Part shown: positions 27,335 to 39,373 of the stretch, piece after piece | How the letters are laid out: each line of letters starts with the position of its first letter | How positions within the stretch are numbered: the stretch's first letter is position 1 | Source of the DNA: a virus | Length of the DNA: 41,658 nucleotides | Strand: one strand, 5' to 3' | Virus record (IMG/VR): IMGVR_UViG_3300050490_000017 | Notes under the pieces: generated by a model | Told to the model about the DNA's origin: nothing | The model's database searches: none | The model's input: the letters and a program-made list of their open reading frames with translations, nothing else | Program-made: the position numbers and the translations under genes

Positions 27335-28441
27335 TCATGCTGCGTCGCCTTCGCGCTGGATGGAGGTGATTTCAGCGAGCTTTGCTTGGTACGCAGCCGA
27401 CGCGTCTTCAGGATTTTTGAATGAACCGAGATACCGGTTCCGACCGCAAATGCAGATTTGAGCCATGTATCGGTTATTCGATATCGTCACGCCGAGAGGA
27501 AGATCGAAGTGTTTCGTTCTTGAGGACTTCCGTTCGCGGCTACTCAGCTTCCGGCGCACGTCAACCATGACTTCCTCATGCCGAGGGTGGCTTTTTCGAT
27601 ACGGGTTGTTGGGCTGGAAAGTGACGTTGTGAAGCGCTGGAGCTATATAGACATTCCCAATCGAGTATTCGCCCTGGTCTCCAAACCGGCACATGACGTA
27701 TTCGTCTCTCCGGCGCCCTCGCAATGCCCATTTCCCAGAAGCCTCCCATACGCTCCACCATTCGGAGAACGTCATGGTCCAAGCGATCGATCGACGACGC
27801 GCGTTCATGCGCTGGCTGTTGAAGCATGTGACTGGCTGGGTTATTTCTGGTCGAAGTTGCCTCGCCAGTTCGTGGATCCTGATGTATTCCTCGACGGAGC
27901 AGCCATACTTTTTCTGGTAACGACGCTCCTTCACAGCCTTGCGAGCCGATTCATTGCGAGAAGCCACGACGCGCTGGCCACCATCGGCAGCCGTCATGCC
28001 GTGACGCTTCTTGATGATCTGCCGAACTCGTTCGCGAGTGACGCTGAAAAGCTCGCCAATCTCCGCCAGCGTCTTCCCACCTCGATACATTGCCGCCATC
28101 GCGTCAGCCCTGTCTCTGTCGAACGGGGTATCCATCGGATGGGCAAATGTGATGCTATGTTCGCGGGCGATCCGGCTGACAATATTGAGCGAGATACCAA
28201 GACGATCGGCGGTTTGCTGGCGGGTAAAGCCCGTCTCTGCTGCTTCGATGATCTGACCAACTCTGGGATCGTCTCCCAATTCTTCCCGCTCGACGCTAAC
28301 ACCAAAATCGAAACCGAAGCGTTTGGAGTAGCTAAGCAGTGTGGCTCGGGTGAAGCCGGATGCTTTGCTGGCCTCCGAAAGAGAGAGGCCCGAATATTGG
28401 CCGATCGTCTCGGCTCGCTTTTCCCAGAGTTCGTTTCTCAT
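27335..28441 (-). CDS. Multi-HTH DNA-binding protein with a C-terminal AP2 domain (368 aa)
   Basis: It carries a sigma70-region-4-like HTH (GKTLAEIGELFSVTRERVRQII) plus at least two further HTH-like segments. The C-terminus LPLGVTISNNRYMAQICICGRNRYLGSFKNPEDASAAYQAK matches the AP2 fold pattern. ATGA overlap with the cro-like gene. Confidence 0.6.
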   Translation of the reverse strand: MRNELWEKRAETIGQYSGLSLSEASKASGFTRATLLSYSKRFGFDFGVSVEREELGDDPRVGQIIEAAETGFTRQQTADRLGISLNIVSRIAREHSITFAHPMDTPFDRDRADAMAAMYRGGKTLAEIGELFSVTRERVRQIIKKRHGMTAADGGQRVVASRNESARKAVKERRYQKKYGCSVEEYIRIHELARQLRPEITQPVTCFNSQRMNARRRSIAWTMTFSEWWSVWEASGKWALRGRRRDEYVMCRFGDQGEYSIGNVYIAPALHNVTFQPNNPYRKSHPRHEEVMVDVRRKLSSRERKSSRTKHFDLPLGVTISNNRYMAQICICGRNRYLGSFKNPEDASAAYQAKLAEITSIQREGDAA

Positions 28442-28662
28442 GCCGCACTCTCCTGCGACGCGATCAACATTCCCTCGTACAGGTCAGGCCGCAGCTCGTG
28501 GCGCGGTATCCCTGTCTCTCGGGAAATGGCCACCAGTTTGTCAGCAGGGACGATGTCCCACTGGTTGATGGCGCCAGGAGTGATGTTCAGAGCTGCCGCC
28601 AATTTGGTGAGACGACCGCGCTCGGCTTTGAGGTACTTGTAGAGGGGGGATCGCTTTTTCAT
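28438..28662 (-). CDS. Cro/YdaS-type HTH regulator (74 aa), first gene of the early-left operon
   Basis: RGRLTKLAAALNITPGAINQWDIVPADKLVAISRETGIPRHELRPDLY matches the Cro/YdaS family pattern. It is divergent from the XRE repressor gene. Confidence 0.8.
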   Translation of the reverse strand: MKKRSPLYKYLKAERGRLTKLAAALNITPGAINQWDIVPADKLVAISRETGIPRHELRPDLYEGMLIASQESAA

Positions 28663-28668
28663 CCCTCG

Positions 28669-28707
28669 ACTATAGTCCGACTACAATTATAGCGCAACTA
28701 TTATTTT
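28669..28707. promoter_or_regulatory. Left operator/promoter module (two 17-bp-spaced TAGT-N3-ACTA sites, back-to-back promoters)
   Basis: TAGTCCGACTA at 28673-83 and TAGCGCAACTA at 28690-700. Leftward promoter: TTGCGC (28697-92), 17-nt spacer, TATAGT (28674-69). Rightward promoter: ccGACt, spacer, TATTAT (28699-704). 34/37 identical to the inverted copy at 29957-29993. Confidence 0.6.
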
Positions 28708-28711
28708 CAGT

Positions 28712-29083
28712 GTGGCTATGTGGAAAATGAGAAAAATTCAGTTCAAGACTCCTAGTATGGCTAGAAGCAAGGAACCGCTTAGGACAGAGGGCGTACGCCA
28801 CTACATCAGGGAGTGGCGCAAGTTCCGCGGTTTGACGCAGGAGAGGCTTGCCGAGCGAACGCCTTTTACCCACGGCGCCATTTCTCAGGTCGAAACCGGC
28901 CGCACCAGCTACACGCAGGAAATGCTAGAAGCCCTCGCAGTCGCGCTCGATTGCACTCCAGGCGATCTTCTCAACGTAAATCCGTTCAAAGAGGGTGATG
29001 TCGTCGACCTGATGCGGCTCATCAACGACAAGAACCGCGACCAGGCTATCCGCGTCCTTCGGGCGTTGACCGGGAACGACTAG
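28712..29083 (+). CDS. XRE-family HTH repressor (cI-like, no peptidase domain), up to 123 aa
   Basis: IREWRKFRGLTQERLAERTPFTHGAISQVETGRTSYTQEMLEALAVALDCTPGDLL is a canonical XRE HTH. The start is uncertain (GTG 28712, ATG 28718, 28727 or 28760). Confidence 0.8.
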   Translation: MAMWKMRKIQFKTPSMARSKEPLRTEGVRHYIREWRKFRGLTQERLAERTPFTHGAISQVETGRTSYTQEMLEALAVALDCTPGDLLNVNPFKEGDVVDLMRLINDKNRDQAIRVLRALTGND

Positions 29084-29301
29084 AGAATTTTCGAAACCAA
29101 AACGAATTCTAGGTTTTTATCGACCGTCACCCGCCATTGGCCGCCGGCAAGCTTCCTCATGGTTTCGGATAACTGACCGGCTTCGGTGAGGCATAATTCC
29201 ATCGATGCCGACTGAGCGGCTGCAGGCTTCAGAACTGCGGAAGCGGCGACACCGGTTGTAATGGCTCTGATGACTTCGCGTCTTGTTTGCATCTGGTGCA
29301 C
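29080..29301 (-). CDS. Small Tat-signal secreted protein (73 aa precursor)
   Basis: MHQMQTRREVIRAITTGVAASAVLKPAAAQ-S has a twin arginine, an h-region and an AxA-type site. A GGGGAG RBS lies 9 nt upstream. Its stop shares the palindrome CTAG with the repressor stop. Confidence 0.55.
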   Translation of the reverse strand: MHQMQTRREVIRAITTGVAASAVLKPAAAQSASMELCLTEAGQLSETMRKLAGGQWRVTVDKNLEFVLVSKIL

Positions 29302-29505
29302 TCCCCCCGATTTTCCTATTAGGCTGGCGCATTTTAGGGATTTATCAACTTACGATATCGAGAGTTCCCCGAATCCGCTTCGGGTGGTTAATAGATGTAC
29401 ACGAGTGCATGGCGATTTCCTGCCTCGATCTTATCCTTGTTCGATACTGTCCCACCCTTCCAATTATTCCCCTCAGAGCAAGAACCTCTTTAAAACAAAT
29501 AAAGT

Positions 29506-29584
29506 CCGTTCTTAAGCATGACCGTTCTTATGGGTGCATTACCACGCACCTTACTACGTGCATCACCATGCACCTTAGAACGGT
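29506..29584. repeat. Iteron-like repeat cluster downstream of the winged-helix gene
   Basis: CCGTTCTTA at 29506-14 and 29522-30, with an inverted copy at 29576-83. The 20-bp repeat GTGCAT(T/C)ACCA(C/T)GCACCTTA occurs at 29534-53 and 29558-77 (18/20 identical, 24-bp period). The second copy contains the perfect palindrome GTGCAT-cacc-ATGCAC. An A/T-rich tract lies at 29481-29505. Confidence 0.8.
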
Positions 29585-29919
29585 CCTGATAGCTCGACAG
29601 GAACAAGCTCATAGGCGTTAAATCTTTTTGTATGGCCCGGGATTTTTACGCGGGTTGCCCTGATAAGGTTTTCTGATTTCAGCTTTGCAACTGCGCTTTT
29701 GACGATCCTGACGCCACAACTCAAGTCATCCGCTATTCGCCCCTGCGACAGAACCCAGATGCCGCTGGAAGGGTTGATCGACGACGCGATTCTGATCGCC
29801 ACCAGCTTCTCTACATAGGTCATCTCGCCTTTAGGTCGGCAGAGCACGTGCTTAATCCAATTGTCGCGCATGCGGTAAAATTCCCCGGCTGGGGATAGCT
29901 GTCTCTGTCTGGTGTCCAT
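29575..29919 (-). CDS. Winged-helix (HTH_36-like) DNA-binding protein (114 aa)
   Basis: VAIRIASSINPSSGIWVLSQGRIADDLSCGVRIVKSAVAKLKSENLI follows the pattern of HTH_36 replication-initiator or regulator N-domains. A GGGAG RBS is present. It is transcribed inward from the right operator module. Confidence 0.55.
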   Translation of the reverse strand: MDTRQRQLSPAGEFYRMRDNWIKHVLCRPKGEMTYVEKLVAIRIASSINPSSGIWVLSQGRIADDLSCGVRIVKSAVAKLKSENLIRATRVKIPGHTKRFNAYELVPVELSGPF

Positions 29920-29946
29920 CTCCCAACATTATCTGAATATTTTTGG

Positions 29947-29995
29947 TAGTGCCACTAAAAAAATAGTTGCGCTATAATTCTAGTGGGACTATAAC
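29947..29995. promoter_or_regulatory. Right operator/promoter module (three TAGT-N3-(A/G)CTA sites at exact 17-bp spacing, back-to-back promoters)
   Basis: TAGTGCCACTA at 29947-57, TAGTTGCGCTA at 29964-74 and TAGTGGGACTA at 29981-91. Rightward promoter: TTGCGC (29967-72), 17-nt spacer, TATAAC (29990-95). Leftward mirror promoter: -10 TATTTT (29965-60). Confidence 0.6.
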
Positions 29996-30063
29996 TGGTA
30001 ATCACACAAGCAGAACGACAGGCACACCCCCGCCGCTCTGCTCCACGAGGAGAGGATGAGAAG

Positions 30064-30402
30064 ATGAGCAACGAAAAGATCGCCCAGTCTATCGCTGACA
30101 TGGTGACGGAATGGGTTGAGGGCGGAATTCGTGGCGGGACCGATTGGCGTAATGGCCTGGCGGTCATCATCGAGAAGCGTCTTGATCGCTTCAAGACTTT
30201 GCAGCCAATCGCGACGGCAGACAAGGATGCCGAACGGCTGACGCTCTGCATTGTTCGCAACGGCGTTCTCGAAGAACTCCACCTTGGCGGTTACCGGTAC
30301 GCGATCAACGACGACGAGGTGTCATGCTGGTGGAGCGACCAAAGCGACGACGAAATAGTTCCGACGCATTGGATGCCAGCACCGGCGTCTCCCACCGCCT
30401 AA
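30064..30402 (+). CDS. DUF551-like protein (112 aa), first gene of the early-right operon
   Basis: A GGAGAGG RBS is present. The C-terminal VPTHWMPAPASP motif is shared with 37583..37966. Confidence 0.5.
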   Translation: MSNEKIAQSIADMVTEWVEGGIRGGTDWRNGLAVIIEKRLDRFKTLQPIATADKDAERLTLCIVRNGVLEELHLGGYRYAINDDEVSCWWSDQSDDEIVPTHWMPAPASPTA

Positions 30403-39239: not shown

Positions 39240-39373
39240 TGTGGTGCCCCCGCCAGTTGTGCTATTATTGGCTTAAATCAATAGCTTAAGCCAAATGGTG
39301 AGGGGAATTTGGCCCGTTGATATCATTTGGCTTTCTAAATCGTCGCCCTCACCTTTCATGAAAGGATTAAGCC
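39240..39373. other. Probable attP region (repeat-rich, non-coding)
   Basis: It lies directly after int. Motifs: 9-bp inverted repeat 39268-76/39286-94; ATTTGGC at 39307-13 and 39325-31, inverted at 39290-96; GGTGAGGG at 39297-304 with CCCTCACC at 39346-53; palindrome CCTTTCATGAAAGG at 39352-65; tRNA-3'-end-like TGGTGCCCCCGCCAG at 39243-57. Confidence 0.55.

Follow-up and report, generated by a model that had tools for sequence, protein, structure and literature searches.

The 41,658-nucleotide viral DNA analysed here (IMG/VR record IMGVR_UViG_3300050490_000017; this whole stretch is called the window below) very probably contains the immunity region of a temperate Rhizobium-type phage laid out on the lambda/P22 plan. 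In this region, two operator-promoter modules in inverted orientation lie on either side of the gene for a small XRE-family repressor, and the XRE protein and a Cro-like protein are their putative binders. The repeat itself, its confinement to this region, the conservation pattern of its sites, their co-variation with the two helix-turn-helix (HTH) proteins and the modular inheritance of the whole were observed directly in the window and its relatives. A first-pass annotation of the window had suggested that one repressor shuts both early operons, with a logic like that of OL and OR. As both modules bear the same repeat, co-vary with the proteins and are inherited jointly, this is also the best reading of the present data.

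For the comparison, 144 XRE homologues and 160 loci (genomes and viral contigs) were gathered, and further loci were obtained through exact-protein look-ups and from phage RHph_N2 (MN988533). About 40 related phage loci were compared; L-numbers (L001 and so on) denote individual relative loci.

Results

Two inverted modules carry a putative 11-bp operator motif

A 37-nt inverted repeat was found whose arms (Table 1) are complementary at 34 of 37 positions, with 1249 nt between them. The runner-up inverted pair within 28400-30200 is 19 nt long at 74%, and none approaches the 37-nt pair. The earlier description of a 37-bp module present twice in inverted orientation was thus borne out.

Each module carries copies of the palindromic motif TAGYNNNRCTA. 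Six exact matches occur in the whole window (28673, 28690, 28753, 29947, 29964 and 29981), all of them between 28673 and 29991, whereas 0.44 were expected from 100 shuffles, none of which attained six. The genome scan called for by the first-pass annotation therefore showed the confinement that it had anticipated. The stricter pattern TAGTNNNRCTA falls at the same places. When one mismatch was allowed in TAGYNNNRCTA, 22 sites were found in the window against 19 expected, which is no enrichment; hence only the exact matches and the site at 28708, which is conserved in relatives, were counted as operators. The sites of the right module have a period of exactly 17 + 17 bp. In the left module it is 17 bp and then 18 bp to the third site, so that the exact 17-bp period claimed previously holds on the right and fails at this third left site. 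Likewise, the left module had been credited with two strong sites of the TAGT form; 28673 is of this form, but 28690 reads TAGC on the + strand and TAGT on the - strand only.

All sites of the earlier list were recovered, but the list omitted the sixth exact match at 28753-28763. This match is not conserved in L083, L163, L166 and L167 (the relatives read AAGC.., GAGC.. or TCGC..), and for this reason it is probably a chance occurrence arising from the ATGGCTA start context. The position and half-sites of left O1, on the other hand, are kept in L083, L085, L163, L166 and L167. In left O3 the first base is C in place of T also in L083, L085, L163 and L167, while L166 deviates at the last base (CAG..CTG). 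Judged from these relatives, the weak third left site is conserved.

The arrangement O2-N6-O1 was also searched for in 185,579 species genomes; the scattered matches were in unrelated taxa, none in Rhizobiaceae, so that they gave no clue to the host. Separately, a one-mismatch operator-like site, CAGTTGTGCTA, is present at 39254-39264 directly downstream of the integrase gene; one-mismatch sites are overall at chance level.

Table 1. Positions of the putative operators and promoter elements, the genes and other features of the proposed immunity region
Feature	Position	Strand	Remarks
Cro-like gene, 74 aa	28438-28662	-	First gene of the leftward operon
Outward -10 hexamer CTATAG, left module	28670-28675	-	Cro ATG (28662) follows after 7 nt
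Left module, OR-like, inverted-repeat arm	28671-28707		92% complementary to 29957-29993
Left operator O1, TAGTCCGACTA	28673-28683		Outer CTA half-site within the outward -10 hexamer
Left operator O2, TAGCGCAACTA	28690-28700		Holds outward -35 GTTGCG (28698 to 28693 on the - strand)
Left operator O3, weaker, CAGTGTGGCTA	28708-28718		One mismatch; 18 bp from O2; adjoins start of the XRE frame
Extra exact match, TAGTATGGCTA	28753-28763		Overlaps XRE start ATG
XRE-family repressor gene, 108 aa	28757-29083	+	ATG 28757; frame open from GTG 28712
Small gene, 73 aa	29080-29301	-	Tat-like signal TRREVIRAIT.. (by eye; TRREVIRAITTGVAASA); convergent with XRE, 4-nt overlap
Conserved non-coding block, 38 nt, CTGTCCCACCCTTCCAATTATTCCCCTCAGAGCAAGA	29447-29484		35/38 columns identical in window, L083, L084 and L001
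Two 18-bp palindromes GGTGC-N8-GCACC, 24 bp apart	29533-29574		Just past the winged-helix stop; unique in the window
Winged-helix gene, 114 aa	29575-29919	-	Transcribed inward from beside the right module; stop codon 29575-29577
Right operator O3, TAGTGCCACTA	29947-29957		Overlaps -35 region of the best inward promoter candidate
Right module, OL-like, other inverted-repeat arm	29957-29993		
Right operator O2, TAGTTGCGCTA	29964-29974		Holds outward -35 GTTGCG (29966-29971)
Right operator O1, TAGTGGGACTA	29981-29991		CTA overlaps outward -10 CTATAA (29989-29994)
First gene of the rightward early operon	30064-30402	+	Followed by HNH endonuclease, exonuclease, Erf, NinB and integrase

The half-sites are invariant in relatives of the same type

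Six loci share the same XRE helix type, namely the window, L083, L085, L163, L166 and L167. In every one of them the left module has two strict sites and a weaker third site 18 bp further on (CAG.. in five, ..CTG in L166), and the right module has three strict sites spaced by 17 or 18 bp. The 36 sites together read T35 A36 G36 Y36 NNN R36 C36 T36 A30/G6. The outer triplets show almost no change, Y and R occupy positions 4 and 8 in all sites, and the three bases between them are free to vary. In the 5-6 kb available for L083, L085 and L166 no additional strict site was detected, and in L166 none was seen even with the relaxed pattern. Such invariant half-sites around variable centres are the signature of a protein-binding site and not of a simple duplication.

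L091, L100 and L109 have the same helix type and dispersed sites. Here, isolated (G)WTAG-N5-CTAW(C) units occur 30-35 bp apart. These isolated units indicate that the binding unit would be the 11-mer core extended outward. The alternative dimer site CTA-N6-TAG (14 bp, 434-like) was ruled out by the same units.

The proposed outward promoters keep a fixed register with the operators

The rhizobial sigma-70 consensus is CTTGAC-N17-CTATAT (PMC2873474). The outward hexamers of the two modules, GTTGCG-N17-CTATAG on the left and GTTGCG-N17-CTATAA on the right, agree with it at 8 of 12 positions. The first-pass annotation had given these promoters as TTGCGC, a 17-nt spacer and TATAGT or TATAAC; they are present where it placed them, but as consensus matches they are not distinctive. 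An E. coli-type promoter scan misses both of them and prefers other combinations. The better evidence is their register: O2 includes the -35 TTG, the CTA half-site of O1 forms the beginning of the -10, and this arrangement is kept in every same-type relative. At the equivalent place, phages of the TTCAGTCAA operator type carry CTTGAC-N17 followed by CTATGT, CTAAGT or GAATAT.

The Cro ATG lies, by eye, 6-8 nt past the -10 in L083, L085, L163, L165, L166, L167, L001 and L084 as well. No Shine-Dalgarno sequence precedes the Cro ATG or the ATG of the winged-helix gene next to the right module. From this short distance and the missing Shine-Dalgarno sequence, the cro mRNA is likely to be leaderless. 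The best inward candidate on the right is GTGGCA-N16-GATAAT, with its -35 region in right O3 and the winged-helix ATG 8 nt after its -10. With this geometry (29919-29933), which is like that of cro, the winged-helix mRNA is also likely to be leaderless. The inward promoters proposed earlier fared less well. For the repressor gene, the candidate TATTAT (28699-28704) is not kept in L166 and L167, and CTATGT (28716-28721) could serve instead; several inward candidates score alike.

Operator type changes in step with XRE and Cro

To locate paired modules in other phages, the 220 nt upstream of each XRE gene were compared by script with the region 0.3-3.2 kb downstream, and the upstream 2.9 kb served as control. 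In dozens of viral loci, inverted matches scoring 13-33 were obtained, against about 10 in the control, with the arms 0.4-1.6 kb apart. Since the repeats differ among relatives, these matches indicate that the paired-module architecture is a trait of the family and the repeat sequence is not. Both modules of a given relative always bear the same repeat. The type of operator follows helix 3 of XRE in every group, which gives at least six immunity types (Table 2). In four operator types (TAG, TTCAGTCAA, ATGCAT and GTTCGC), Cro bears a similar helix.

Table 2. Operator types and the corresponding helices of XRE and Cro
Operator	XRE helix 3	Cro helix	Loci
TAG-N5-CTA	T.GAISQ(L/V)E	TPGA(I/V).QW, e.g. 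TPGAINQW	11
TTCAGTCAA	S(S/T)(V/I)SQLE	PST(I/V)SQW, e.g. PSTISQW	7
ATGCAT-N3-ATGCAT	SQSK(I/L)SR	SQ(S/A)Q(V/I)SRI, e.g. SQSQVSRI	5
TTTTAC..	SVGNLS	Not comparable	2
GTTCGC..GCGAAC	SKGYISD	SKGYLHD (read in L117)	2
TTAAG..	SHVTVSN	Not comparable	2

The window, L163, L084 and L001 form a natural two-by-two swap. Between the window and L163, Cro, the left module and most of XRE show 66-94% nucleotide identity (50-nt bins) and the right module 86%, whereas the interiors are only 22-44% identical except for one conserved block. Between the window and L084 the interior is alike (62-98%), but both modules, Cro (41%) and the HTH of XRE differ; the identity profile of XRE dips over the HTH segment, and the operators of L084 are of the TTCAGTCAA type, unlike those of the window. 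Thus, both modules are inherited together with XRE and Cro across unrelated intervening DNA.

These comparisons bear on two other explanations of the repeat. The arms could be a duplicated strong promoter for the host RNA polymerase, with TAG and CTA as promoter elements and no repressor acting at the right module. Hexamers resembling a -35 and a -10 are indeed present in both arms, and the -10-like CTATAx sequences share bases with the CTA half-sites. However, conservation is equally strong in O3 and the inner half-sites, which the outward hexamers do not cover, and a change of repeat type affects both modules together, in step with the two HTH proteins, without shifting the -35 TTG register. 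This explanation is considered quite improbable. There is a similarly slim chance that only Cro binds the sites and that XRE acts elsewhere or through protein contacts, given that co-variation with the operator is as good for Cro as for XRE. Against it stands the comparison with RHph_I1_23 (MN988556), the only annotated phage with nucleotide similarity at the switch. Its XRE protein differs from that of the window mainly in HTH helices 2 and 3, the C-terminal half being about 85% identical, and the L084 profile dips at the HTH too. Differences concentrated in the HTH would be expected only of a helix that reads the operator. Moreover, it is standard for a repressor gene to be flanked by its own operators.

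The XRE protein resembles the DNA-binding domains of known phage repressors

The XRE protein was matched in Pfam by HTH_31 (9.5e-12, 45.5 bits, cut-off 27) and HTH_3 (1.8e-10, 41.1 bits, cut-off 23). In its structural model, residues 17-73 form a confident five-helix HTH that superposes on the N-terminal domain of P22 c2 with an rmsd (root mean square deviation) of 1.2 A at 38% identity, and also on 434 repressor and 434 Cro. By the Pfam scores and the structural match, the protein belongs to the XRE/434-Cro-type five-helix HTH class, and it is proposed to be a CI-like prophage repressor.

The first-pass annotation had taken this protein as 123 aa long. A start at ATG 28757, giving 108 aa, is more likely, with ATG 28718 and 28727 as alternative starts. 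The in-frame N-terminal extension MAMWKMRKIQFKTPS (MWKM.., 28712-28756) is nevertheless conserved in the closest relatives: it is open in the window, L083, L163 and L167, with some synonymous changes in the last three, and absent in L085 and L166.

In the C-terminal tail of XRE, residues 80-108 (NVNP.KEGEVVDLMRLIND.NRDQAIRVL.AL) are highly conserved across immunity types, and residues 75-106 (28979-29074) are about 85% identical between phages of differing immunity type; the conserved tail is common to at least six immunity specificities. No Pfam family matched it. The tail could be an oligomerisation or antirepressor-docking element, perhaps also a recombination linker for the exchange of the neighbouring genes.

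An S24/LexA-type cleavage domain such as lambdoid repressors have was not found in XRE, which has only HTH families in Pfam. The missing domain suggests that the repressor is inactivated by a partner protein. When a profile of the tail was run against all six-frame open reading frames of the window, it matched only XRE itself; a SinI-like antirepressor of the tail, as in a SinR/SinI pair, is thus not encoded there. The rhizobial LexA box GAAC-N7-GAAC was also considered and rejected, its one match lying inside the integrase gene at chance level.

The product of the first leftward gene was matched by the Pfam family YdaS_toxin (1e-08, 35.3 bits, cut-off 30), which places it in the Cro/YdaS family. 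P22_Cro (6e-07, 29.6 bits) fell slightly below its cut-off of 30.2, and PHROG 35, a transcriptional repressor group, matched as well. The recognition helix ITPGAINQW is similar to that of XRE and varies with operator type among the relatives.

Proposed mechanism and points against it

In the switch proposed here, a dimer of XRE would bind the 11-bp cores TAGY-N3-RCTA in contiguous 17-bp units, three per module. Because O1 overlaps the -10 and O2 contains the -35, their occupancy would shut the leftward cro/late operon and the rightward recombination/integrase operon at once. The innermost O3 sites, of which the left one is weak, lie over the inward transcription starts, where they would probably exert negative control at high repressor concentration. 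The Cro-like protein would bind the same sites as a counter-repressor in the lytic phase. The distance between the arms, varying as it does in relatives, is uninformative on looping between the OL- and OR-like modules.

Several points weigh against this mechanism. The evidence is comparative throughout, and binding, promoter use, leaderless starts and autoregulation are all deduced from it. Co-variation alone would fit binding by XRE, by Cro or by both. The conserved triplets are only about 8 bp apart in the 11-bp core, which is short for a 434-type dimer; this distance would be workable only if the half-site extends outward (WWTAG), as the sites of L091, L100 and L109 suggest. Sites 17 bp apart would sit on different faces of the helix, so that a cooperativity of the lambda style is not obvious. 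The promoter score of 8/12 is not unique, since a scan with the rhizobial consensus yields several candidates at 8/12. The C-terminal 30 residues of XRE were modelled as two short helices at low confidence. Finally, with no cleavage domain, antirepressor or LexA box found, induction is not accounted for by the proposed switch.

An exchangeable slot separates the repressor gene from the right module

The winged-helix gene beside the right module had been put forward in the first-pass annotation as a second inward regulator of the switch. Its product matched the Pfam family HTH_36 weakly, and PHROG 270 and PHROG 391, which correspond to the N-terminal part of replication initiators. The similarity to replication initiators covers the N-terminal domain only (PHROG 270, 6.5e-08, positions 31-116 of 383). 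The structural model (predicted local distance difference test, pLDDT, 90) has a generic fold, shared with the C-terminal domain of CodY, TFE and the N-terminal domains of plasmid Rep proteins.

A two-repressor switch, in which this protein alone or with XRE recognises TAGY-N3-RCTA, would be in keeping with the position of the gene next to the right module, with its likely promoter overlapping O3 and with the confident DNA-binding fold. The gene, however, segregates apart from the operator. L084, with operators of the TTCAGTCAA type, encodes a product 77% identical to that of the window, whereas L163 shares the operators of the window but its winged-helix protein is only 30% identical; this L163 protein is in turn 68% identical to that of RHph_I1_23. 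In L139 the slot holds a lipoprotein gene instead and in L091 nothing, and both have paired modules. The protein also has, elsewhere, co-varying palindromes of its own (see below). A part for it in reading the operator is therefore very improbable, and the claim of a second regulator was largely refuted by the contrast between L084 and L163. Because it segregates independently of operator type, the winged-helix gene is regarded as cargo. By this comparison the winged-helix and small exported-protein genes are exchangeable cargo outside the operator system.

That the arms are recombination sites of an invertible 1.25-kb segment, flipping the immunity genes between two promoters, has next to no probability: inverted repeats of about 35 bp around a segment of about 1 kb are typical of Hin/Gin systems, but there is no invertase or recombinase gene within 27.3-31.2 kb, a single orientation with XRE beside Cro was found in all loci checked (RHph_I1_23, RHph_N2, L163-L168 and the upstream Cro matches in 35 loci), and the arm distance of 0.4-1.6 kb with differing contents argues against it.

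The pair of palindromes next to the winged-helix stop differs with each variant of the protein and keeps its position. It reads GTTTC-N7-GAAAC in L001 (3722-3770) and L163, CGCATATTTGCG in L104 and GTGCAAATTTTGCAC in L128. As the pair changes along with the winged-helix variant, this suggests that the palindromes are candidate binding sites of the winged-helix protein, physical linkage being a confounder.

The 73-aa protein belongs to PHROG 32610, to which no function is assigned. Phages of other immunity types have homologues in this position, the one in L084 being 79% identical. The protein may act in lysogenic conversion or in exclusion.

The core of the conserved non-coding block, TCAGAGCAAGA, is also present in L104, L105, L128, L163 and L164 despite unrelated flanks. 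For the block at 29447-29484 there was no Rfam match and no convincing promoter reading. It is CU-rich on the + strand (anti-Shine-Dalgarno-like).

Two further ideas are offered tentatively and are, on present evidence, rather unlikely. In the first, the slot would hold a second cassette for immunity or exclusion that is exchanged independently and that the lysogen expresses from the O3-gated promoter; in the second, the XRE tail would be a common docking surface for one induction factor. The parts of such a cassette may be the winged-helix protein resembling the N-terminal part of Rep, its own co-varying palindromes, the invariant 38-nt element and the small exported protein.

Discussion

Likeness to known switches

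The first-pass annotation had considered that the operator motif and the regulators could not be assigned to a described phage switch. This was overstated, for the layout is the lambda/P22/434 scheme. The order in the lambda immunity region is OL/PL, rexAB, cI, PRM/OR/PR, cro. As in lambda, the repressor and cro genes of the window diverge from a tripartite operator with promoters (three sites lie between the Cro-like and XRE genes), and a second tripartite operator (29947, 29964 and 29981) is placed upstream of the other early operon, which it would control and which holds recombination genes and the integrase. A weaker third site beside the repressor gene, and accessory prophage genes between the repressor gene and the second operator, are also common to both. 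The differences from lambda are several. The proposed operators have an 11-bp core in contiguous 17-bp units, whereas those of lambda are 17-bp sites with spacers. The repressor is of 108 aa and lacks the S24 self-cleavage domain. The cargo is transcribed inward from the OL-like side and is not co-transcribed with the repressor. A leaderless message is proposed here for cro and not for cI, and no N or Q antiterminators were identified in the window.

With the immC region of P22 (c2, cro, OL, OR) and with 434 the window shares the XRE HTH fold. It differs from them in operator sequence and length and in having no LexA-type C-terminal cleavage/oligomerisation domain, and beyond the HTH domain there is no membership at the sequence level. 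The 434 repressor and Cro share recognition-helix residues, as do the lambda repressor/Cro pairs, and XRE and Cro of the window do likewise.

Among annotated phages, RHph_I1_23 has an identical gene order, an XRE protein 65% identical to that of the window and inverted modules about 1.28 kb apart, with the different repeat TTCAGTCAA. RHph_N2 likewise has this gene order, and its paired inverted modules are separated by about 1.25-1.28 kb; its XRE protein is 48.5% identical and its operator repeat, GT(C/A)AC-N7-GT(G/A)AC, is different. Sinorhizobium phage PBC5 has a homologous XRE repressor at 50.6% identity. The records of RHph_I1_23 and RHph_N2 annotate only an 'HTH-type regulator' or a 'cro-like repressor'. 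As a side observation, about 660 nt of the cargo slot of RHph_N2 (L189, 3020-3690) is without an annotated gene; neither a tRNA nor a significant Rfam match was obtained for it, and at its end a hairpin like that of a terminator, GCCCCCGAAGC..GCTTCGGGGGC, runs into a T-rich tract.

The C repressor of Rhizobium phage 16-3 acts on OL and OR with the motif ACAA-N4/6-TTGT and is a much larger protein. It is thus likewise a rhizobiophage repressor with two operator regions, and its operator motif is different; it was not among the tblastn matches to the XRE protein at E <= 1e-3. The SinR/SinI system resembles the window in that its XRE protein is small and ends in a short helical tail, and SinR (1b0n) was found at rank 31 of the fold matches. 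In contrast, the window encodes no SinI-like paralogue, and the XRE tail was modelled at low confidence.

What is particular to the window is that the half-sites double as the start of the -10 hexamers, together with the operator sequence, the small repressor devoid of a cleavage domain, the probable leaderless cro and the inward cargo slot. In the searchable literature, neither this operator nor the switch of these phages, RHph_I1_23 included, was found to be described.

The design is classical lambdoid, and the general understanding of such switches is unchanged by it. The comparison does assign a concrete candidate operator (TAGY-N3-RCTA in 17-bp units), repressor and counter-repressor to temperate phages of soil and Rhizobium whose annotations are generic. 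The at least six natural helix/operator specificity variants on one conserved promoter scaffold form a series for the study of HTH-DNA recognition and heteroimmunity, and with RHph_I1_23 and RHph_N2 as cultured relatives the model becomes testable. Separating the core switch from the exchangeable cargo also guards against annotating the winged-helix gene mistakenly as the repressor.

Flanking operons

The relationship of the window to Rhizobium phages is mosaic, and nucleotide matches to them are only patchy. An Rfam scan of 28300-30400 gave no RNA family. A tRNA-Ala of 92 nt predicted by ARAGORN at 28335-28426 (+) was set aside as a probable false positive, because it falls within the coding region of a 368-aa gene on the other strand and is without Rfam support. 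The leftward operon runs from cro to the terminase and structural (late) genes; no recognisable replication initiator was seen in it. Its second gene (27335-28441, - strand) is the one that codes for the 368-aa protein, in which several HTH motifs (HTH_23, Sigma70_r4) were detected and whose C-terminal part matches HNH-endonuclease PHROGs.

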